From a virus, in IMG/VR virus record IMGVR_UViG_3300045988_114391, positions 1 to 30,863 of that record: a stretch of DNA of 30,863 nucleotides. One strand, given 5' to 3'. The position numbers were made by a program, and so were the translations under genes. The notes under the pieces were generated by a model that made no database searches, was not told where the DNA came from, and was given only the letters and a program-made list of their open reading frames with translations. Of this stretch, positions 2,574 through 30,863 are shown in pieces (the stretch's first letter is position 1; every line of letters begins with the position of its first letter).

Positions 2574-2912
2574 TTAATTAATAAGTTTGTATATAACATC
2601 TATCAGCTTAGTAGATGCATCTTTTAATAATATCATAATATCTTTAATAATTGGAGTCATAAATGCTAATAGTGCAATATACCCAACCATTAAAATTGAA
2701 AATTGACTTGTAATAAGAATATATATTAATCCAATTCACCAAGTCATACATAAACTGCAATCTAAAGGTTTTAGTCTTCAATCTTCTTTATAAGGTATAC
2801 CTTTAAATAGTCTTTTTCAAATACTGTGTTTAAAACTATCCAAAGCCCCAGATAAATCAATTATAAAGACTATTATTACTGCTATTATAAATAATTCTAA
2901 CATAATCTTCAT
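2574..2912 (-). CDS. Small integral membrane protein (three in-frame TGA)
   Basis: Hand translation: MKIMLELFIIAVIIVFIIDLSG...PLDCSLCMTW[W]IGLIYILITSQFSILMVGYIALLAF... Hydrophobic segments. TGA at 2817, 2778 and 2736. TAA stop at 2574. Confidence 0.55.
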
Positions 2913-3382
2913 ACATAATTATAACCTGTTTTATATTTGCCATATAAACAAGCTCGAATTGAATAATCACACTTACCTAAAGCTTCCGCAGCTTCTTTAA
3001 TAGAATTATACTTTTTAACTAGAGTTCCGTTAAGATCATATTGAGCTACAGGTTTTGAAAGGTAAGAAGAAATCTTTTTATTTCTAGTTCCATAATTTGT
3101 ATTATATTTCCTAGTACATCATTCTAGATTTTCGACTCTATTGTCAGTCTTATCTTCATTAATATGATTTACTTCTGGTAAATTATATATATTTGGTATA
3201 AATGTTTCAGCTACTAATCTATGTATAGACTTCATTTTAACTTTTCCATTTTTTCATAGTCCTACTGCTAAGTAGTTATTTCTAATAGTAGGTTTAATAA
3301 ATTTATTTGTCCTTATACTATAAACTTCTCCGATATTATTTACTTTATAAAGACCTTCATAATTAGCTATATCCTTCCACAT
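2897..3382 (-). CDS. HNH homing endonuclease (NUMOD4-like N-terminus, HNH core, C-terminal DNA-binding tail); three in-frame TGA
   Basis: MWKDIANYEGLYKVNNIGEVYS..., HRLVAETFIPN, VNHINEDKTDNRVENLE[TGA]CTRKYNTNYGT. Invisible in the standard-code track. TAG stop at 2897. Confidence 0.85.
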
Positions 3383-3621
3383 ATTTTATTTCTAATATTA
3401 CTTATACACCTTGATATGGTAGTATGACTAATTCCCAATATTTTTCCCACTTCTCTATAACTGTGATATTCAGCATATAATATGATTACTGTCTTATCTG
3501 CCTTATTAAGCTCAAGTCATTTTGGATATATACTTAATAGTCTATCATCCATATTTGTAAACATACTATAGTCTATTTCATACTCAGTAAGTAAATCGTC
3601 AATATTAATCTTCCGTTTCAT
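3367..3621 (-). CDS. Sigma-70 region-4-like HTH protein (one in-frame TGA)
   Basis: LELNKADKTVIILYAEYHSYREVGKILGISHTTISRCISNIRNKI resembles the region 4.2 HTH of ECF sigma factors. TAG stop at 3367. Confidence 0.6.
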
Positions 3622-3913
3622 TTAATCAATCCTCCAATTCGTCATTTTGTTGTTCAAGTGGTTCTTTAACAATCTCATAATATTTCTTATAGGTATAGTA
3701 ATATCTACTTGTTTTACTAAACCAATAATTCTTAAATAATCTTGTAATCCAAAATTTCAATTCATTTTTGCTATCAAGCTGATTTAATTTTGGATTTGAA
3801 TACTCTAGTATTTCTACAAAAATCATTTGAACACAGTCATCATCTGCACCAAATTTTTGCTTAAGTTCCATAATAAATGGATAGTACTTTTCTACAATTT
3901 CGTTATTACTCAT
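3605..3913 (-). CDS. Sigma-70 region-2-like protein (track ORF 3626..3913 extended through TGA to TAA at 3605)
   Basis: EKYYPFIMELKQKFGADDDCVQMIFVEILEY...ELKFWITRLFKNYWFSKTSR resembles the ECF sigma region 2 pattern (..D.vQ..f..l.....W...i..N.....R). Its 3-prime end overlaps the start of the region-4-like gene. Confidence 0.5.
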
Positions 3914-4400
3914 ATGTTCACATATATCCTCCTGCTGTTTTTCGCTGCCCTTTAAGAACCTTTACAATATTTCTAGATTGTATATTTAGTTCTCTCTCAG
4001 CATCTATTGTTGAATCCCATCTTTTAATAACTATTCCATTTAGTAATTGCAGTATTGGTTTCTTATGACTATATCCAGCTCGCAGATTATGAGTTCCATA
4101 ATTATTATTATAATTATAAGTACACCATTCTAAATTACTTACGTTATTATTTGATTTATTTTCATCCTTATGATTTATACAAGGATAGTTATTCGGATTA
4201 GATATAAAAGTTTCAGCTACTAATCTATGTATATAACACTTCTTTTTCAAATTTTTATTATATAATGTTACTGTAAAGTACCCATTAGTTTTTACTTGAG
4301 GTTTTAACCTCTTTGGAACTGATGCTCTTAAACTTCATATTGAGCCATCAGTTCCAATTTGGTAGTTTTCAAAATTAAGTATTCTTTTATAGGCTATCAT
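3906..4400 (-). CDS. HNH homing endonuclease, paralogue of 2897..3382 (two in-frame TGA)
   Basis: MIAYKRILNFENYQIGTDGSI[TGA]SLRA..., HRLVAETFISN, INHKDENKSNNNVSNLEWCTYNYNNNYGT, C-terminus AGGYM[TGA]TYE then TAA. Confidence 0.85.
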
Positions 4401-5140: not shown

Positions 5141-5216
5141 TTTTTTAGGTATTATTTTTATTATTTTCAAAAAAATATTACTATTTGTATTTTTATTATA
5201 TATTAATAAAAACAAT

Positions 5217-5702
5217 ATGATTTACGTAATTAAATTAACTAAAACGAATTTTATTAAAGTTGGTTACACTACTAATATAAGTGGCAGACTAACTGCTTAT
5301 AAAAATACTATTCCAAATGAGATGATAGAATTTTTTATAGCAAAAGAAGGAAATAGAGATGATGAAAATTATTATAGAGATAAATATAGAGCATATAAAA
5401 CTAAGAGTAATTCAGAATGGTTAAAACTTCCAGATGAATTAATTGTAGAGCTATTAGCAGATTTTAAGAGTGCAAATAATATAAAAATAAATAAACAAAG
5501 CAAAAAAGAATGATATAATGAGAATATAGATAAATTAGTAGAATTGTGCTTATCTGGAGTATCATTAAATAGAGCTGCAATTCAATTAAATGCACTAAAT
5601 TGAGACTGAATAAAATATGCTAATCAAAGATACGAAAAAGAGAATGGCAAAAAATTAACAAAACTTTGGGTAAGAAAAATCAAGAAAAGTTTTGCAGAAT
5701 AA
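5217..5702 (+). CDS. T5orf172 (GIY-YIG-related) domain protein with a C-terminal HTH-like extension (three in-frame TGA)
   Basis: MIYVIKLTKTNFIKVGYTTNISGRLTAYKN...SEWLKLPDELI matches the T5orf172 pattern. Reads through TGA at 5511, 5601 and 5607 to TAA at 5700..5702. TGG is also used (KLWV). Confidence 0.75.
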
Positions 5703-5855: not shown

Positions 5856-5864
5856 GAATCTTAC

Positions 5865-5914
5865 TGTCAAGTTTTTTACTCACTTTTAGTAGTAAGAAAA
5901 TAAAAATATTGACA
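5865..5914 (+). repeat. Intergenic 50-bp element, copy S1
   Basis: TGTCAAGTTTTTTACTCAC-ttttagtag-TAAGAAAATAAAAATA-TTGACA. The 18-nt head is identical in S1, S2 and S3, and the ends are inverted (TGTCAA/TTGACA). Confidence 0.8.
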
Positions 5915-5944
5915 AAAACTTTAACTATTTAAATTATTAAAATT

Positions 5945-8174: not shown

Positions 8175-8744
8175 TTAAACATATCTTCACTTGAATCCTT
8201 TAGCTGTATTTGCTAATCCACCACATACTCTACTAATAGCTCCTCTATCAGTTCCTACAGATTTGGCTGCTTCTGTGCAACTTTCATACTCTTGAATAAA
8301 ATTACCATCTAAATCATACTGAGCTACTTTACGACATCTTTGTTTGTTATGAGCATCTACTTTAACTCTTCAAGATTCTGGGCAATTATGTTTCTTTCCC
8401 TTATTAGAATTAGACAGTTTCTTCTTTCATTCAGAATTAAATTTGACTCCGTAATTGCCTCCTTCTCCTCCAGGTTTCAAATTTAAACACATAGGATCAG
8501 TGTCCCATTTATCTCCAATTAGTTTGTATTCTAATTTAGATAATTCATCTGCATTAGTGCAAGTTGCCAAAATAATCTTTTGGTATGCATTAGGGAATCT
8601 TTTGTAATAATTAGTAATAATCCTTCCTGATCCTTTATATGGATCTTTATTTATGTCTTTACCTCTATAAATCCTTTTCCCAATATAATACTTGCCTCTT
8701 AATGTACCTGCAGTTAAAATTATTTTATAACAATAGTAAAACAT
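8175..8744 (-). CDS. GIY-YIG homing endonuclease with C-terminal DNA-binding domain (three in-frame TGA)
   Basis: N-terminus YCYKIILTAGTLRGKYYIGKR...KPGGEGG. Reads through TGA at 8427, 8370 and 8187 into ...KKHNCPES[W]RVKVDAHNKQRCRKVAQYDLDGNFIQEYESCTEAAKSVGTDRGAISRVCGGLANTAKGFK[W]RYV, then TAA. Confidence 0.85.
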
Positions 8745-12213: not shown

Positions 12214-12586
12214 AGCTTATATATTGATTTTGTCTATCATATTGGTATCTTTGATTTTCATAATCCCCAATTCTAATTAAACCAGTACTAAGAATTGGAA
12301 TAGGTTTTCCAGCTATCAGAATTTTAGTATTTGTAGTTAATATATTATCATAGGTGACTAATACATAGCTATTGTACTGATCTTGATATATGTTATTTGG
12401 GTCTATGACGATTTCCCATTTATTTGGGTTATAAAATAATACATACTGATACTCTCCATCTGGTGTATTATCATCTAACGTTATATCAAATTTATAATAT
12501 ATATTTTCAGAATAATTCTGATTATTTAAATTATAAATATAAATTTGTTTTGTTACAGTATGCTGAAGAACAAGACTATAATTCAT
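12200..12586 (-). CDS. Hypothetical protein
   Basis: Uninterrupted 128-codon ORF with a TAA stop. Y/N/Q-rich. Confidence 0.5.
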   Translation of the reverse strand: MNYSLVLQHTVTKQIYIYNLNNQNYSENIYYKFDITLDDNTPDGEYQYVLFYNPNKWEIVIDPNNIYQDQYNSYVLVTYDNILTTNTKILIAGKPIPILSTGLIRIGDYENQRYQYDRQNQYISYERK

Positions 12587-13241
12587 ATTTTCAAATATAT
12601 TTTTTATATGTGGGAATTATGCCTCTTAAAGCATTATATACACCACTTCTTGTAAATTCGTCTTCTAGCTCTCTAATTCGACTATATTTTTTAATTAGTT
12701 TTCCATCTAAAGAGTATCTGAGAATATATTTATATTTGGGATTTGGCCTAGTCTTTCAAGCTTCTTTCATAGCTTGTTTACATTCCTCACTTCTTGATTT
12801 TCCATATAAAGGATGAAATTCTCCAGATCTACAATAATTACTAGTATGTTTACCGTAATTTGGATTCTTTTCCCCTCTTTTTGCTTCAGACAATCTTTTT
12901 CTCGTTTCCTCAGTTATTATATGTCCAAATCCACCATCTCCTCCATCTGTCATATTATATCCATTTATTTTAGAATTAAATAAATTAATATATTTCTTTT
13001 CAGCTTCATCTAATTTTCTATTTAATAAACTTTCTGAGGTACAACAAAATACCTGTATAGCTTCGATAATAAAATTTTTATCTCCATATTTCCTAATAGC
13101 TCGACTTAAATGATAATCCAAACCAGATTTTGCTTTCAGTTTATGCTCAATGAACCTACGCTTAATATCTCTGGTGGTTTTTCCAATATAAATCTTATTG
13201 TTTATTAAATTAGTTATTTTATAAATTGTTCCACTTTGCAT
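12576..13241 (-). CDS. GIY-YIG homing endonuclease (two in-frame TGA)
   Basis: GTIYKITNLINNKIYIGKTTRDIKRRFIEHK...NGYNMTDGGDGG. Reads through TGA 12756 into KTRPNPKYKYILRYSLDGKLIKKYSRIRELEDEF... and ends at TAG 12576, overlapping the next start. Confidence 0.85.
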
Positions 13242-13308: not shown

Positions 13309-13334
13309 TTAAAGGAGACCTAAGCCTCCTTTAA
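13309..13334 (-). terminator. Intrinsic terminator
   Basis: ttaaaggag-acctaagc-ctcctttaa hairpin, followed on the minus strand by ttattttaa. Confidence 0.7.
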
Positions 13335-13384
13335 TGTCAAGTTTTTTACTCACTCAAAGTACTAAGAAAAAATAAAAACTGACA
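13335..13384 (+). repeat. Intergenic 50-bp element, copy S2
   Basis: TGTCAAGTTTTTTACTCAC-tcaaagtac-TAAGAAAAAATAAAAA-CTGACA. It ends 4 nt from the stop codon of the gene at 13389. Confidence 0.8.
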
Positions 13385-13388
13385 AAAT

Positions 13389-21425: not shown

Positions 21426-21474
21426 TGTCAAGTTTTTTACTCAAATTTGTATCTAAGATAAATAAATTTTGACA
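21426..21474 (+). repeat. Intergenic element, copy S3
   Basis: TGTCAAGTTTTTTACTCAA-atttgtatc-TAAGATAAATAAATT-TTGACA. Confidence 0.8.
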
Positions 21475-21541: not shown

Positions 21542-24301
21542 TTAGAAACTTGCATTTGATTCTGTAACTGCAACTTTAGTTTGAGCTGAAGTAATGTCAG
21601 ATTCAACAACATAACACTTAACAGGTTCATTTAAAAGGTCAGTTTCTTTATCTCCAAGTAAGTTTCGAGTATATTCTACAGGAGCAGTATTTAAAGCAGC
21701 AGGTGCTGCAATAGATGCAGAAGCAGAAGATGCAGATGCTCCACTAGTTTCGTCTACTTCCCAGATCTTTTTAACATTAGCTATACCAGCTGCAATTGCT
21801 GCAGCAGCGGCGGCAGCACCTAAAGCTGGACCTACAACTGGAATACCAGCCATTGCAGAATAAGCACTGTTAGCTGCACTATATGTATCAATTAAAGCTT
21901 GAGCTGTTGCGAATCCTTTACCTACTTTACTTTCCTCTCCTCATATAGTTGCCATACTTCCTGCAACCTTTGATGCTAGATCAAGGCGAGCTTTTATAGA
22001 TTCTTGATATTGCTTATTAACATTTTCTCTAACTTTGTTTTTCTTATTTTCTCTGTCTATTTCATTTTCAGTTAATTGCTCATCAATAGAATCTAATTCT
22101 AGTTTAATAAGTTTTCTCTGATCAGCTGTTAAAGTCTCATTTTCTAATTGTTTTAATAGAAAAGACTTCTGCTCCTCCAATCTTGTTTTTATTTGATTAT
22201 GATATTTATCTATAGAACCTTCTTCAGTATCTGTTCCTAATAAACGATCTTTATATCCCTCTATGTCTTTTTTGCTTGAATAAGAGAACTCACCACTTAA
22301 TCCAAATATTTTGGCAAATCCTTGTGTATATTGAGTTTTAGGAATTTCTAAAGATGTATCTTTTATATCATACCTTGCCTCGCGCATTCTTTTTAACTCA
22401 GTCTGCAGATCATCTCAAGCTTTATCCGCAGCACTTTTTCTTGCATTTTCTTCATCTTCTCTAGCTTTATCTCTAATTTTCTTCAGCTCTTCTTGATGCC
22501 AAGCCTCAACTTCTTCAATACTTCTATTATTTTTAATAGCTAGTGCTAATAGTCTAATATATTCATCTTCAAGTTCATCTACTGGGTCTTTATCCTCTAA
22601 TCTCTTTTGAAGCCATTCATCAAATTCATTTATTACCTTCTTAGCTTCAGTAGTGTTCTTTGTAATAGTTGGAATATTAAAGAACCCACCATACTTTTTA
22701 TTAGTATCTGCTACATCCTCAAATAGCTTTTTAATCCTTTTCTCAATGTCTTTATTTAAATCATCCAACTGTTTATAAGTATTCTCTTTATTTTGCTTTG
22801 TATACTCATAAATTGTATTTGAATAATCTTTTCAGAACATTGCTGTAGCTTTAAAAGCCTGCCAAGCAGATGCCTCTCCAAAGCTTGTATCAGAAATTTG
22901 ATTCTCCAGTTCAGTACGTTTATTTAAATACTCCTCATAAAGCTTAATTGCAGCCTGTTCAATAGCCTGAGCTTTTGCTCTTGCAGTTAATGCTTCTACA
23001 TAATTACCAGTATTATTTACAAACGCATCTTCTGCAGTCTTTACATTAGTAATATTTAAACCAGTCTCTTTAATCTTATCGGAATATTGCTCTATAAACT
23101 TACGCTTAGCATCTGCAGAATCTCCAACCCTTTCGTAAGCTATTTGTAACTCTCTAAAGATAGCTATAGATTTAGAAGCAATCTGATTAGTAGTATCTGT
23201 AATAGACTTTCTAAATTCAGCAGCCTCCTTTTCAGCTGATTTTATTGAGGATATATACTCTATTATCTTATTAATAGCTACTCCAATAGCTGTAGCTAAT
23301 GCAATTCATACAGTTACATTACCAATAGTTTTAAGTGCAGTTTTAACTTTACCTACTCCAGAAGCAGCTTGTTCTGAAGCTTCAGCCATTGCTTTCTGAG
23401 CCTCTGCCCCTTTTCGCAAAGTTGGAATGCCTTTTTCTACATTTTCCTTTAATTCAGCAAGATCTACACCTAAACGTTTAGCAGCTTTCTGCATTCTCTC
23501 TGCTGGAGTTCCAGTCTCTTTTGCTGCTTCCTTTAAAAATTCAGCAACTGTAGTAAATGTAGGTTTTACTTCTTCAAAGGACTTTTTTGCAGTTTCTCCT
23601 AATTTACCTATAATCGGAATCGTATTAGATACACTCTTATTAGTAGCAGATATTTCAGCAGGAGTGCCCATTACTCCTTGAATCATACCTCCTTTAAAAT
23701 TAATATTGGTGCCTTCTAAATCCTTGACTACTTTAGAGATATTACCTAATTCAGTTCCAACATTACCAACAGATGTGCCAATGCCATTAAGCTTAGATGC
23801 ATCAATCTGATTAAGATTTTTGGCAGCATTATTCAACCCTGTATTAAATGGAGAGATAAAATCAGTTAATTTCTTAAACCAATTACCTAAAGTAGGCAAT
23901 TCTTCTAATAAATCTTTTATACCTCCCACACCTTGAACTAAAGCAATAGTAGATTGTAACTTAACCATTACTTTATTTAAATCTTCTGATTCTTTCCCAA
24001 ATAAAGTAATAGCAGCAGTTGCAGCTCCATATCCACTGGCCAAACCAGTGGATATTTTAGCTACACTTTCAAACCTTTGAGCAGTAGTTCTTGAAGATCT
24101 TGCTATCTGCTCATTAATTTTATTGAATTCTGATTGTCTCTTACCAAGTAATGAAAGAGTTTCATTATATTCCTTAGTACCAATCTCTAAATCATTCAGC
24201 GAATTAGTTAATGCATCAATATCTTTCTTTAAAGAGTTTATTGACTTATTACTTGACTTAGTATCAATACTAATAACCTTTTTAATTTCTGTTTGTGCCA
24301 T
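21542..24301 (-). CDS. Tape-measure-like protein, 919 aa (four in-frame TGA)
   Basis: Track ORFs 23306..24301, 22415..22768, 21941..22387 and 21542..21853 share one frame. I translated all gaps and found only TGA (23306, 22832, 22415, 21941). Long coiled coils, and a Gly/Ala hydrophobic segment GIPVVGPALGAAAAAAAIAAGI near the C-terminus. Confidence 0.7.
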
Positions 24302-27300
24302 TAGATTGTAATATTTTTAACAGTATCTTCTGTTAGTGTTAAATTCTCTGTATATTTAACTGTTCCTGTAGGTCCATCAGTCACTTCAAATTTAAACTGA
24401 ACACCTTTTTGAGCATATATTCTATAATTTCCATTATCCTGCATATAAGCCACATTCAAGAAGTTATCGTTTTCTGTAAGTATCTGATTTACCCCAGTTG
24501 GTATAGTGCCACTTGGAGTTTCTAATTTGCCTGTAATAAGAACAGCTTTATTTGGGTCTGGAGTTTGAGTAAACATACATTTAGGACCATCTACGCCTCC
24601 TTGTTTATAAAGACTAAAGTAGAAACTCCTTTGATTATATTTAGTATTCTCATTATAAGTAACTGTTAATTCTGTTTCTCCAGGTTGCCCAGATTCAGGT
24701 GTAATGCTTACAATTTCATTTGGACTATATCATCCTAATTCTCAAGGAATATTAGAAGTAACTGTAATCTTTTTAGTCCCAGCTTTATAATCTACAACTG
24801 GATCTGAATCATCAAATGATATATATTCACCTAGATTTTGAACTCCAGCTAAATAACTATTAATATCTTGAACTTTAATAAATTCGCATCTAACTGTAGA
24901 ATCTGAATTAATATCATAAGCATCAATCTTATTAAGTATCCAGTAAGAATCTTCAAAATAATAGAACTGTCTAAGTAAATCATACTTAACATCTAAATCA
25001 TCCAATCTTACAAAGCAGGCAACTTTTTTAGTATTTACATCAAATTGATCATTATAAAATTCACTCCAGAATCTACTATATAAAGTAGATTGTTCTAAAT
25101 AACTAACTTTATCAATGTATATTTCTCTTGGAACCCCAAAATCTCAAGATGAAGATATAAAATTACTAGAAATAGTGTATCTTATAAATTGTGGTAATAT
25201 GTTTCTTCTAATAGCTATTTTTTGTCCTGCAGAATTATTTTCACTATTAGTATAGATATAACAAGGTTCTCCATCATTAAGAACTGACATTTCTGTAACA
25301 TCATCAGTAATCCAATAATAAATAGGATTACCATTTATATCTTTCATATTAACATCATCATTATAAAATAATAAAGTACTTTTTATCTCTTCAAGACTTT
25401 GTTCATTATTATCTAATGTATAAAAACAAGTTTTTGCAAATATATCATTTCCAGGAACATCCCACCATTCTGTAGTCTTACCTTGGTCTATAAAATTAGC
25501 TCCATATAAATCCTGATCATTAGTCTTTACTTCTGTAGAAGTTCTATTAAATAAACTATATGTAATATTATCATTCATAAATGCGGGTACATAAGTATTT
25601 CCAGAATTAAAGAAATTTCTAAAATACTTATCTGCATCTCTTGCTGATACTACATTTTGAAATATATTTCCAGAATATAAATCAGTATTATCACTATTAA
25701 AATTATATCCAGTGTTTAATCTTTGCTGACCATAATCTATATCATATTGTCTATCATATTTCTTGGCATAATATGTTTCTGGAGTTTCTAATGACATAGT
25801 ATATCACTTCTTATCAAATAATATTGGATTTACATTGAAGTCTTTAGAATAATCAATCCTTTTACTCCAATCAAAGATTATATTCTTAAAGAAATTATTT
25901 CTAGTATATATTCTAATTGTTTTACTATCAATATCTTTTGTAAAATACAATCCAAATAGTTTTGCATAACTTAATAAGTAATCAACAGGAGATTGTTCTG
26001 TCTTTAATAATTTCTGCTTAGTAATTAAAGCATCGGAAGTAACTGTTGAGGGCCAAGAAGCTTTTAATGTATACTGATCTTCATCATATAAAAATTCTGA
26101 CCATCCAGCAACTCTATTTGCTGTGACATTATTAGGATGCATATTATCTGATTGTCATACTGCATCTTGATTGTATAAACTCTCAGTTCTTCTTGCAATT
26201 TGTATATTCACTAAAATCTTATTAACTTTAGGCATATCTTTTACAGTAAATCTGAAAGTATTAGTATTATTATCACTTTTAAAATAATACCTATTTCCAC
26301 TATCTTTTACAAAGTGACCAAAAATAGCTTCTACAGGTGCATCAGTTAATGGATAATAATTAAACCAAGTTCCAGGTCCTGATTGAACTTGAGTGTTTAT
26401 CTTATTTGTAAAGTTATATAAAGGAGAGTATGCTATAGGTCTACTAGGAGATGAAGTATCTTCAGCATCATATATCAATATCTGTGCTGTTACTGATGTT
26501 CTGTAAGGATCATTCCTATAATCTGTATTTCCAGCTCTTCCGTTCCTTACATAAGATAAATATAAATCATTACCTGCTGAAACATTTGCATTATAAAATA
26601 GCTGAAAATCAACATTAATATTAACAAGAGTATTAGCAGGAGTTGCAGATAAATCAATTACTTGGCCTTCCCCAGGAACTATTACATCACTCCCTGTAAC
26701 ACTAAATCTACCCCAGTTTACTGAAGTAGTTGTTCCTCCAGGTTTTAATCCACACCAAAACAAATCATTATATTTAGTAAGTTTAGCATTCTCTGTAATA
26801 TTATCTGATTCTTCATCTTCAGTAGATCCTAATAAAGGTAATGCAACAAACGCTTTATTTCAATATGGATTTGAATAATTAAAGAAACTATCATCAAATA
26901 TCACATCATATCCAGAATTCTCTTTTCTACATATAGTTTCTATTAACTTACTTAATTTTAATGCTGGCCTTTGCATATAACTTCTAAGATCTCTCATCTC
27001 CCATTCTGTATATGCTCTATTTAATTTAGCTAATCCATATCCATTATAAGGTGTGTATGTAGTTCCTGAATCGGTCTTACTAGTAGGAAATAAATTATCT
27101 CCATTAGTATTTATTAAACAAGTTTCATTATCAAAGTTTTCATATAAACCGTTATATGCAGGAATAAATGTTAAAAAATCATAAATTTGACTTCCGTCAT
27201 TTACTTTACTCCAATTAAAACAAGTATTTACAAAATCTTTATTAATGTGGAAATTCATTTCAGTATCGGTAGGAAGTACATTACCATCCTCATCAGTTAC

Positions 27301-27741
27301 AAAGTATTGTAAATCAGCTAGAGTTCTAATAGTGCCATCTTCTTTATATTTAAGTCCATAAAAGAAATCTCCCAATCCTCCATATAAAGTAATATTATAA
27401 GTAATAACTGCTTGCTTTATAGAGATGCTATTTAACTGCATATATCCTGATTCAACTAAATATCCATTATTATAGATTCCAAAGTCAACTCTTTTTGAAG
27501 GATCAAAATATACGCCAGAGAAATTACCTTCTTTTATATGGAGAAATCTATCTAACTTATAAATCTCTCCAAAAATCTTATTATTGTTTTTGTCTCCTGG
27601 AATGCTTATAGTCTTACTGAATGAATTTTTTACTATTGTTGGATTCTGAAAATCTTCTACAGTATAAGTCATTGGTAATGATATGCCTTCAGAACAATGT
27701 ACTTCTTTTCCTGCAATAAATAATTTAATATTCTTTCTCAT
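24301..27741 (-). CDS. Large tail/baseplate-type structural protein, 1146 aa (six in-frame TGA) with a C-terminal Ig/BACON-like module
   Basis: Six track ORFs (26860..27741, 26155..26763, 25804..26142, 25144..25797, 24742..25005, 24301..24576) are in one frame and are linked only by TGA. Segment ITPESGQPGETELTVTYNENT...RSFYFSL is Ig-like. The TAA stop overlaps the next ATG. Confidence 0.65.
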
Positions 27742-30536: not shown

Positions 30537-30863
30537 TTAATGTTTTCTTTTTCATTCTTCAATCTGTCTATTTTCTTCATTAGCTTTATCTATAACATAG
30601 CATATAATGTTAAGAAACTCTTTAATCTGCATATCATATATCTGATGTCAATTAAATCTGGTAACTTCACTTACCTTATCTATTCAGATAATTCAGCTTC
30701 ATTTTTGAGTAAAAGGATTAATCGTCTCGTCTGTATTAAGCTCTTCAGAAGTTTCCTCCTTTCCAGTTTGTCCTTGGTTTTCCTTAGTCTCTTCTTCATC
30801 TCCCTTTCCGAAGAGTGTAGGGTACTCAGCGTTGATACTTGCAATAAGTTTACAAAAAAAAAC
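30537..30863 (-). CDS. 3-prime part of the junction-spanning gene, read in the -1 frame after the T9 run (five in-frame TGA)
   Basis: ...ASINAEYPTLFGKGDEEETKENQGQTGKEETSEELNTDETINPFTQK[W]S[W]II[W]IDKVSEVTRFN[W]HQIYDMQIKEFLNIICYVIDKANEENRQIEE[W]KRKH, TAA at 30537. About 105 codons free of TAA/TAG in very AT-rich DNA. Confidence 0.5.
30765..30863. repeat. Second copy of the 99-nt terminal duplication
   Basis: Identical to 1..99. Confidence 0.9.

Follow-up and report, generated by a model that had tools for sequence, protein, structure and literature searches.

A Putative ECF-like Sigma Factor Encoded as Two Overlapping Genes Between HNH Endonuclease Genes in a Small Gut Phage

The Gene Pair and Its Junction

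The DNA considered here, referred to below as the window, is the whole of positions 1 to 30,863 of the IMG/VR virus record IMGVR_UViG_3300045988_114391, a stretch of 30,863 nucleotides (nt) with 29.8% GC that comes from a small gut phage and carries nearly all of its genes on the minus strand. At issue is a pair of overlapping minus-strand genes, r2 (3913..3605, 102 amino acids, aa) and r4 (3621..3367, 84 aa), lying between two HNH endonuclease genes on the same strand, with HNH_B (3906..4400) placed 5′ of r2 and overlapping its start by 8 nt, and HNH_A (2897..3382) placed 3′ of r4 and overlapping its end by 16 nt. The comparisons described below make it probable that r2 and r4 are the separately made halves, corresponding to sigma regions 2 and 4, of one sigma factor resembling those of extracytoplasmic function (ECF), and that they act together on the host core RNA polymerase.

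The r2 gene ends with a TAA at 3607-3605, r4 starts with an ATG at 3621-3619, and the 17 nt at 3605..3621 (minus strand) hold both the stop region of r2 and the start of r4, which is in the +1 frame. The r4 frame is closed by a TAA at 3624-3622, immediately before its ATG, so that the two frames could be joined by frameshifting only within the 17-nt overlap ATGAAACGGAAGATTAA, in which no slippery sequence or codon pair was found. A Shine-Dalgarno-like GGAGG (3635-3631, minus strand) is located inside the r2 coding sequence, 9 nt 5′ of the r4 ATG, and this combination of a ribosome-binding site and a start codon of its own suggests that r4 is initiated independently, coupled to the translation of r2. 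The r2 product contains a DDDCVQM...LKFWITRLFKNYWFSKTSRYYY core followed by an acidic C-terminal tail, and r4 consists of the rest of a linker and a helix-turn-helix (HTH) of the sigma region-4 type. These open reading frames (ORFs) had been described in a sequence-only reading of the window with the same coordinates, different frames, 17-nt overlap and TAA before the ATG, all of which are exact under translation table 4, and the peptide strings quoted there are found in the window translations.

The choice of table matters, as the genome clearly uses genetic code 4, in which TGA encodes tryptophan. ORF totals amount to 12,513 aa with table 4 versus 9,211 aa with table 11, six in-frame TGA codons occur within a single ORF of 1146 aa, and the LE[TGA]CT of HNH_A aligns with LEWCT in its paralogue HNH_B; examples of TGA as a sense codon are found at 3086-3227 compared with 4092-4233, and at 24301-27741. 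ORF lists made with table 11 consequently truncate many genes in the window. In the gene pair itself, r2 codon 96 is a TGA, and r4 codon 35 is a TGA at the position of a tryptophan that is invariant in the r4 family, which means that the r4 HTH is translated under code 4 only. Were the TGA at 3628-3626 a stop, r2 would end 4 nt before the r4 ATG, and the pair would remain divided. No tRNA genes were found in the window, though TGA occurs in all gene classes, from which it follows that the host itself probably reads TGA as tryptophan.

Homology to Sigma Regions 2 and 4

The relationship of r2 to sigma factors was approached through its relatives. A profile of 25 r2 orthologues (A2), searched against 1.8 billion representative proteins, matched 559 of them at E ≤ 1e-3, most being stand-alone proteins of ~100 aa, whereas ~20 of the best 150 matches were 156–245 aa long; 31 r2 homologues of ~100 aa were counted. 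Sigma70_r2 is by far the commonest Pfam family among the stand-alone relatives (30/122, the next family reaching 15). The match lies above the Pfam cut-off in one r2 relative, P0156 (25.9 bits, cut-off 24), which is itself matched by the r2 profile at 1e-12, and P0146 (r2 profile match 1.5e-17) reaches 23.7 bits, its match covering positions 8-63 of the 71 in the profile. Scans of IMG/VR with P0146 and P0156 gave no matches, and a tblastn search of r2 against GenBank phages gave no useful one. The AlphaFold2 (AF2) model of r2 is all-helical (pLDDT 80.7) and resembles uncharacterised phage proteins of 160–232 aa in a viral structure library at probabilities of 0.9–0.98. The homology of r2 to sigma region 2 is regarded as established by transitive sequence evidence, i.e., indirectly, via its relatives, without confirmation from the fold.

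In the case of r4, Pfam gives matches to HTH_50 (1.2e-7), NUMOD1, Sigma70_r4 (8.7e-5) and Sigma70_r4_2 (6.5e-4), the last two below the Pfam cut-offs, Sigma70_r4 only just so. A majority of the 108 r4 homologues of ~81 aa carry a precomputed PF08281 match. An alignment of the r4 profile with RpoE sigma4 by hhalign had P=5e-4. A structure model was made on P0032, which is 95% identical to the window r4 (AF2, pLDDT 73.5), and its top matches in a Foldseek search of the PDB were sigma chains in the holoenzymes of S. aureus (sigma-B) and of mycobacteria (sigma-A), followed by CnrH, RpoE, SigW, FliA and SigF, mixed with LuxR/GerE regulators of the same fold. The Foldseek probabilities reach 0.97, yet E is at least 0.3 throughout. 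The HTH of regions 4.1-4.2 can thus be recognized in r4, in a fold common to the LuxR/GerE regulators, and, judged together with the fused relatives described below, r4 is best read as the predicted sigma4 half.

Some further observations concern r2-like proteins. In the diverse family alignment (A5), which is too variable to serve as a locus query, Pfam DUF6899 is also matched by 15/122 and Mycobacteriophage_Gp53 by 11/122 of the stand-alone sigma2-like proteins, and these two may themselves be families of sigma2-like phage proteins. Among individual database entries, P0001 lacks an internal part of HNH_B, the deletion joining the HNH_B N-terminus to r2, and P0025-P0027 are r2 copies with an internal frameshift; either defective genomes or faulty assembly may lie behind such variants.

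Split and Fused Members of the Family

The generality of the two-gene arrangement was followed in 48 loci of the phage family, from independent samples and assemblers, using hidden Markov model searches of code-4 ORFs. In 48/48 loci, at amino-acid identities down to ~50%, r2 and r4 were in separate ORFs, none having both domains on one polypeptide. The ORFs overlap, with r4 in the +1 frame, in 45/48 loci; close relatives have an overlap of 17 nt, and in divergent ones the called ORFs overlap by 26–50 nt and the sequences differ. In the other three, L045, L047 and L048, a 171-aa HNH gene (in L045 at 3263-3778) is inserted between r2 and r4, the frame offset being 2, so that the two must be translated separately there.

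Single-chain relatives also exist. The fused forms of 156–245 aa comprise an r2-type N-terminal domain, an acidic linker and then an HTH with WYDxxLF...TGISxxSI (the fused form L049, for example, has 171 aa), and the family as a whole shares the signature N[QN]xxS[KS]TSx[FY]Y. When r2 and r4 are concatenated, the product aligns collinearly, end to end, with these fused forms, and the break falls within the linker, which is represented in the window by the acidic end of r2 together with ~30 residues at the start of r4. Of the fused relatives, 11/19 match phrog_1740 ‘RNA polymerase sigma factor’ (best 1.4e-9), with a match that covers both domains in the single fused member shown in detail. Against the PDB, the fused-relative profile matched sigma-H (3mzy, 0.005), RpoE (9n9q, 0.07, in an alignment covering most of both proteins) and, also weakly, SigW. 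Aligned by hhalign with E. coli RpoE, it was collinear over 142 columns (P=0.015), with DDLxQE paired with DVVQE and W..R...N with WLYRIAVN, a weak result obtained with a shallow RpoE profile (120 proteins among the matches listed, all at least 86% identical to E. coli RpoE).

A scan of IMG/VR with the motif NQxxSKTSPFY retrieved 22 true family members from standard-code phages, of which 17 are fused, three (L052, L060 and L062) are split into overlapping ORFs, each with its own start codon, and two have sigma2 only. Among the representatives analysed overall, the split form was found in 116 and the fused form in 22. A rough neighbour-joining tree implied 11 state changes with split and fused forms interspersed; it was built on ~100 highly divergent columns and is too weak for counting events.

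The sequence-only reading had proposed that the 102-aa product is sigma region 2 and the 84-aa product region 4, that together they make one sigma factor of ECF size, and that the pair is either genuinely bipartite, a +1 frameshift fusion or a sequencing frameshift. Its two domain assignments are borne out, the first through the 30/122 relatives, the window r2 itself being without a Pfam match, and the second through the weak matches of r4 and its relatives to Sigma70_r4/r4_2; the single-sigma proposal agrees with the collinearity of the concatenate and the single-chain relatives. It had also called for fused or split orthologues to be sought in related phages, and both kinds have been found. 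An uninterrupted single ORF at this locus in relatives, which would have spoken for an indel error, was encountered in none of the 48, and ‘genuinely bipartite’ is the option favored by their uniform splitting and by the three intervening HNH genes.

Proposed Function and Alternatives

If r2 and r4 do form one sigma factor, r4 would initiate at its own Shine-Dalgarno sequence and ATG inside the end of r2, and coupled translation from the overlap would keep the two near 1:1. The r2 product would then bind the beta-prime clamp helices and read or melt the −10 element, and the r4 product would sit on the tip of the beta flap and recognize the −35 element, with the acidic r2 tail and the N-terminal segment of r4 standing in for a covalent linker. 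Acting jointly, the two would redirect the polymerase of the host to promoters of the phage. The pair is found early in a leftward operon, with the terminase, portal and capsid genes immediately downstream of it, which makes middle or late phage genes the probable targets.

A number of results weigh against this interpretation and have to be set beside it. The window r2 has no direct match in Pfam, and its sole PHROG match is weak (E=0.039) and to a family of unknown function; the r2 family profiles matched no sigma factor among PDB sequences, a Foldseek search of the r2 model against the PDB returned nothing below E=1, and annotated sigma factors in the viral structure library appeared only at E ~5. 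Pairwise hhalign probabilities, obtained with the shallow RpoE profile, are low for both halves, 2–3% for r2 and 31% for r4 against RpoE sigma4, and the generic HTH families HTH_50 and NUMOD1 match r4 above their cut-offs. The distant loci L068 and L071 have a sigma2-only gene, no sigma4 gene being detected in the 2.5 kb searched downstream. A search of eight intergenic regions for a two-block motif of the ECF type found nothing above shuffled controls. The binding of r2 and r4 to RNA polymerase or to each other is, moreover, a prediction.

One rival reading is that the two products act separately, r4 for example as an ordinary HTH regulator or DNA-binding partner and r2 as a lone modulator bound to RNA polymerase. 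The best scores of r4 are with generic HTH families (HTH_50, NUMOD1, TyrR HTH), its fold is that of the LuxR/GerE regulators, and sigma2-like genes evidently occur without a detected sigma4 neighbour, as in L068 and L071. T4 gp55, for its part, is able to work alone at a basal level. The divergence of r2 is also sharply discordant with that of r4 between the same genome pairs, which points to recombination between the two genes. On the other side, r2 and r4 adjoin and overlap in 45 of the 48 loci and are separated in the other three by nothing other than the inserted HNH gene; the pair aligns collinearly with the domains of the fused relatives, which in turn match phage sigma-factor families, across both domains in the member shown. 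Separate action is therefore considered unlikely, though it is the alternative to be taken most seriously.

Alternatively, the pair might be a sigma gene in decay, which a frameshift has inactivated and which has lost its function as a sigma factor. Because fused relatives exist, the two halves may descend from one undivided gene, and the locus is crowded with selfish endonuclease genes. Both halves, however, are under purifying selection, with dN/dS (the ratio of nonsynonymous to synonymous substitution rates) of 0.12–0.23 for r2 and r4 alike where dS is unsaturated, and their many homologues are of conserved length and have kept the invariant motifs over deep divergence. Given further that r4 retains a start codon and a Shine-Dalgarno sequence, and that the split form is the commonest among the representatives of the analysed set, decay is a very improbable explanation.

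A different connection between the ORFs would be made by programmed +1 frameshifting, which would join them into a sigma factor of ~185 aa and turn the separate products into by-products or additional forms. The layout is as expected of a frameshift site: r4 is +1 relative to r2 in every overlapping case, the three standard-code phages included, and the r2 ORF runs past the r4 start in all of them. A single frameshift mutation in an ancestor would account for the constant offset just as well, however, and neither the length nor the sequence of the overlap is conserved in divergent relatives. In the window and its close relatives, the TAA before the r4 ATG restricts a shift to the 17 nt that lack a slippery codon pair, r4 has its own GGAGG and ATG, and no such joining can be reconciled with the HNH gene and the offset of 2 in L045, L047 and L048; there is scarcely any probability left for this mechanism. 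As for a sequencing or assembly indel in one gene, a single-base indel in the linker would look exactly like the window and internal r2 frameshifts do occur in the entries P0025-P0027, but with the same two-ORF structure in every one of the independently sampled loci and with proteins of ~100 and ~81 aa as the database norm, the chance of an artefact is negligible.

Promoters for a sigma factor divided in this way between two co-encoded polypeptides were looked for in the window. Neither an AAC/CGT-type promoter nor a recognisable anti-sigma gene was found, and a scan for sigma-70-type promoters gave fewer sites than in shuffles. A repeated ~50-bp element (5861-5917, 13331-13387 and 21426-21466) shares GAGTAAAAAACTTGACA on the minus strand, which includes a host-type −35 hexamer, and has a second box of the TTGACA/CTGACA/TTTGACA type in the opposite orientation; GC-rich hairpins follow copies 1 and 2. 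It looks like a terminator/promoter cassette rather than an ECF-type promoter. Two suggestions of the sequence-only reading are not upheld by this element: that the late operons lack host-type promoters, since it carries host-type TTGACA boxes itself, and that the sigma factor might read it, since it contains no ECF-like motif.

HNH Endonuclease Genes and Linked Alleles

The two genes flanking the pair had already been recognized as HNH endonuclease genes, and profile searches agree. The HNH_3 catalytic motif and NUMOD modules are present: HNH_A matches HNH_3 (3.6e-11), NUMOD1 (4e-11) and NUMOD4, and HNH_B matches I-HmuI_NUMOD-like (8.6e-8) and HNH_3 (1.6e-5). Both match phrog_59 ‘HNH endonuclease’ (1e-45 for HNH_A, 2e-39 for HNH_B), and they share a 142-nt repeat at 73% identity.

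Endonuclease genes are present or absent at fixed positions of the locus. Of the 48 loci, 17 have none, 17 have one upstream of r2 only, eight have both an upstream and a downstream gene as in the window, and three have one downstream of r4 only; the gene between r2 and r4 is accompanied by a downstream one in two loci and stands by itself in one. The position of HNH_B is occupied in 25/48 loci and that of HNH_A in 13/48. The insertions are linked to particular alleles of the adjoining sequence, and this linkage is complete among the 48 loci except for L021. The upstream gene goes with the r2 N-terminal allele M[SN]NNEI.EKYYPFI..., the middle gene with a different r2 tail, and the downstream gene with the r4 C-terminus ...TTI[AS]RCISNIRNKIC... 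in place of ...TTIQRFIKQIRERLC. Two C-terminal alleles of r4 are accordingly distinguished, ...QRFIKQIRERLC and ...SRCISNIRNKICGRI.

Such linkage is consistent with co-conversion or with cleavage-resistant alleles. HNH endonuclease genes are inserted at three borders, ahead of r2, between the two halves and behind r4, and these borders have the appearance of homing sites. In the r4 allele linked to HNH_A, about seven residues of the sigma4 recognition helix are changed (SRCISNIRNKI versus QRFIKQIRERL, 3367-3420), and this could alter −35 recognition. The endonuclease-linked alleles of the recognition helix thus hint that selfish elements may alter promoter recognition.

Relation to Known Split and Single-Chain Sigma Factors

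Descriptions of natural split sigma factors are, to our knowledge, few, namely SigO-RsoA and, in a functional sense, T4 gp55/gp33. In B. subtilis SigO-RsoA, sigma2 and sigma4 are on two polypeptides according to 2009 work as cited in PMC7826278, whereas PMC10141391 assigns the domains otherwise (sigma2 and sigma3 on one, sigma4 on the other). The present pair is like SigO-RsoA in its gene layout, with the sigma functions divided over two small co-encoded polypeptides. SigO-RsoA, however, is cellular and serves an acid-stress response, while r2 and r4 are phage-borne, have fused relatives and are cut in the sigma2-sigma4 linker. The 2021 ECF reclassification (PMC7826278) calls for a search for more ‘ECF factors with split domains’.

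The T4 proteins gp55 and gp33 have been called a ‘split sigma’ (PMC7892883; bioRxiv 10.1101/2025.01.04.631326). The role proposed here is similar, in that a small phage protein in the role of sigma2 and a protein at the beta flap would redirect the host polymerase, in T4 to the late genes. T4 gp33 has no structural relationship with sigma region 4 and on its own does not bind DNA, and the sliding clamp gp45 is needed for activation (PMC7892883); r4, in contrast, has a true HTH of the sigma4/LuxR type, from which it follows that the r2-r4 locus does not belong to the gp55/gp33 system. The Pfam and PHROG results included no match to a family annotated as gp55 or gp33.

The pair also resembles the single-chain ECF factors of group IV (for example, E. 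coli RpoE or B. subtilis SigW) and the phage sigma factors of phrog_1740, which have sigma2 and sigma4 only and show the same motif order (DDLxQE... / ...W..R...N). No region 1.1 or sigma3 is present in r2 and r4, and their 102 and 84 aa add up to ~186 aa, within the ~170–200 aa of such factors, the domains of the fused relatives being separated by an acidic linker only; r2 and r4 differ from the single-chain ECF factors in being two polypeptides and in having their own N[QN]xxS[KS]TSx[FY]Y signature.

A gene split in connection with homing endonucleases has been described in Aeromonas phage Aeh1, whose nrdA became ‘genes in pieces’ by the insertion of a homing endonuclease gene (PMC3045599), and nuclease genes have been found at the boundaries of genetic exchange (PMC10448857). 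L045, L047 and L048 are like Aeh1 nrdA, with a free-standing endonuclease gene between the halves of a functional gene, and the flanking alleles that travel with the endonuclease genes here resemble the latter pattern. Most genomes, the window included, are unlike Aeh1 nrdA in that no endonuclease gene occupies the place of the split. Literature searches did not find a description of a phage-borne ECF-like sigma factor cut in the linker with both halves recognisable and with fused relatives.

It is tempting, if speculative, to generalize from these comparisons. Split, two-subunit ECF-like sigma factors could be the predominant form of a large uncharacterised family of phage sigma factors comprising hundreds of 50%-identity clusters, in which the halves can be exchanged independently, resulting in modular promoter specificity, and the split may stem from an endonuclease gene that entered the linker. 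If true, separate genes for sigma2 and sigma4, each bordered by homing sites, would allow the halves to be exchanged between phages one at a time. The locus in any case offers a compact, conserved and abundant example of a putative split sigma factor that can be compared with its fused relatives, and the HNH gene that separates the halves in three loci may be regarded as a natural ‘insertion mutant’ bearing on the need for an uninterrupted sigma2-sigma4 linker in initiation. In a host that probably reads TGA as tryptophan, a sigma factor supplied by the phage could be the main temporal switch.

Genome Context

The window resembles a phage genome. Bases 1-99 are an exact direct repeat of 30765-30863 (99 nt, terminal), which shows that the assembly is circular and the genome 30,764 bp long. 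The phage ORFs scanned include TerL, a portal protein, a prohead protease and a capsid-like protein, and no RNA polymerase gene was recognised among them. No relative turned up when GTDB genomes were scanned with the r2 profile. A 198-kb scaffold (L002) and a 148-kb IMG/VR contig (L020) carry the ~31-kb phage near one end and could be prophage/host junctions or chimeric assemblies.

Downstream of r4, beyond HNH_A in the window, is orf112 (2574..2912, minus strand), whose product is small, is predicted to be a membrane protein, contains a CxxC motif and has no family match. In relatives without an endonuclease gene, orf112 comes immediately after r4 and overlaps it. The position of orf112 is one at which an anti-sigma factor is often encoded in ECF operons, and it is uncertain whether orf112 belongs to the r2-r4 unit. 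Further genes of mobile type are found at 8175-8744, in an ORF whose counterpart in a relative carries NUMOD1, at 12576-13241, in a GIY-YIG-like ORF, and at 5214-5702 on the plus strand, in an ORF of the T5orf172/MUG113 type; the presence of all three varies among relatives.

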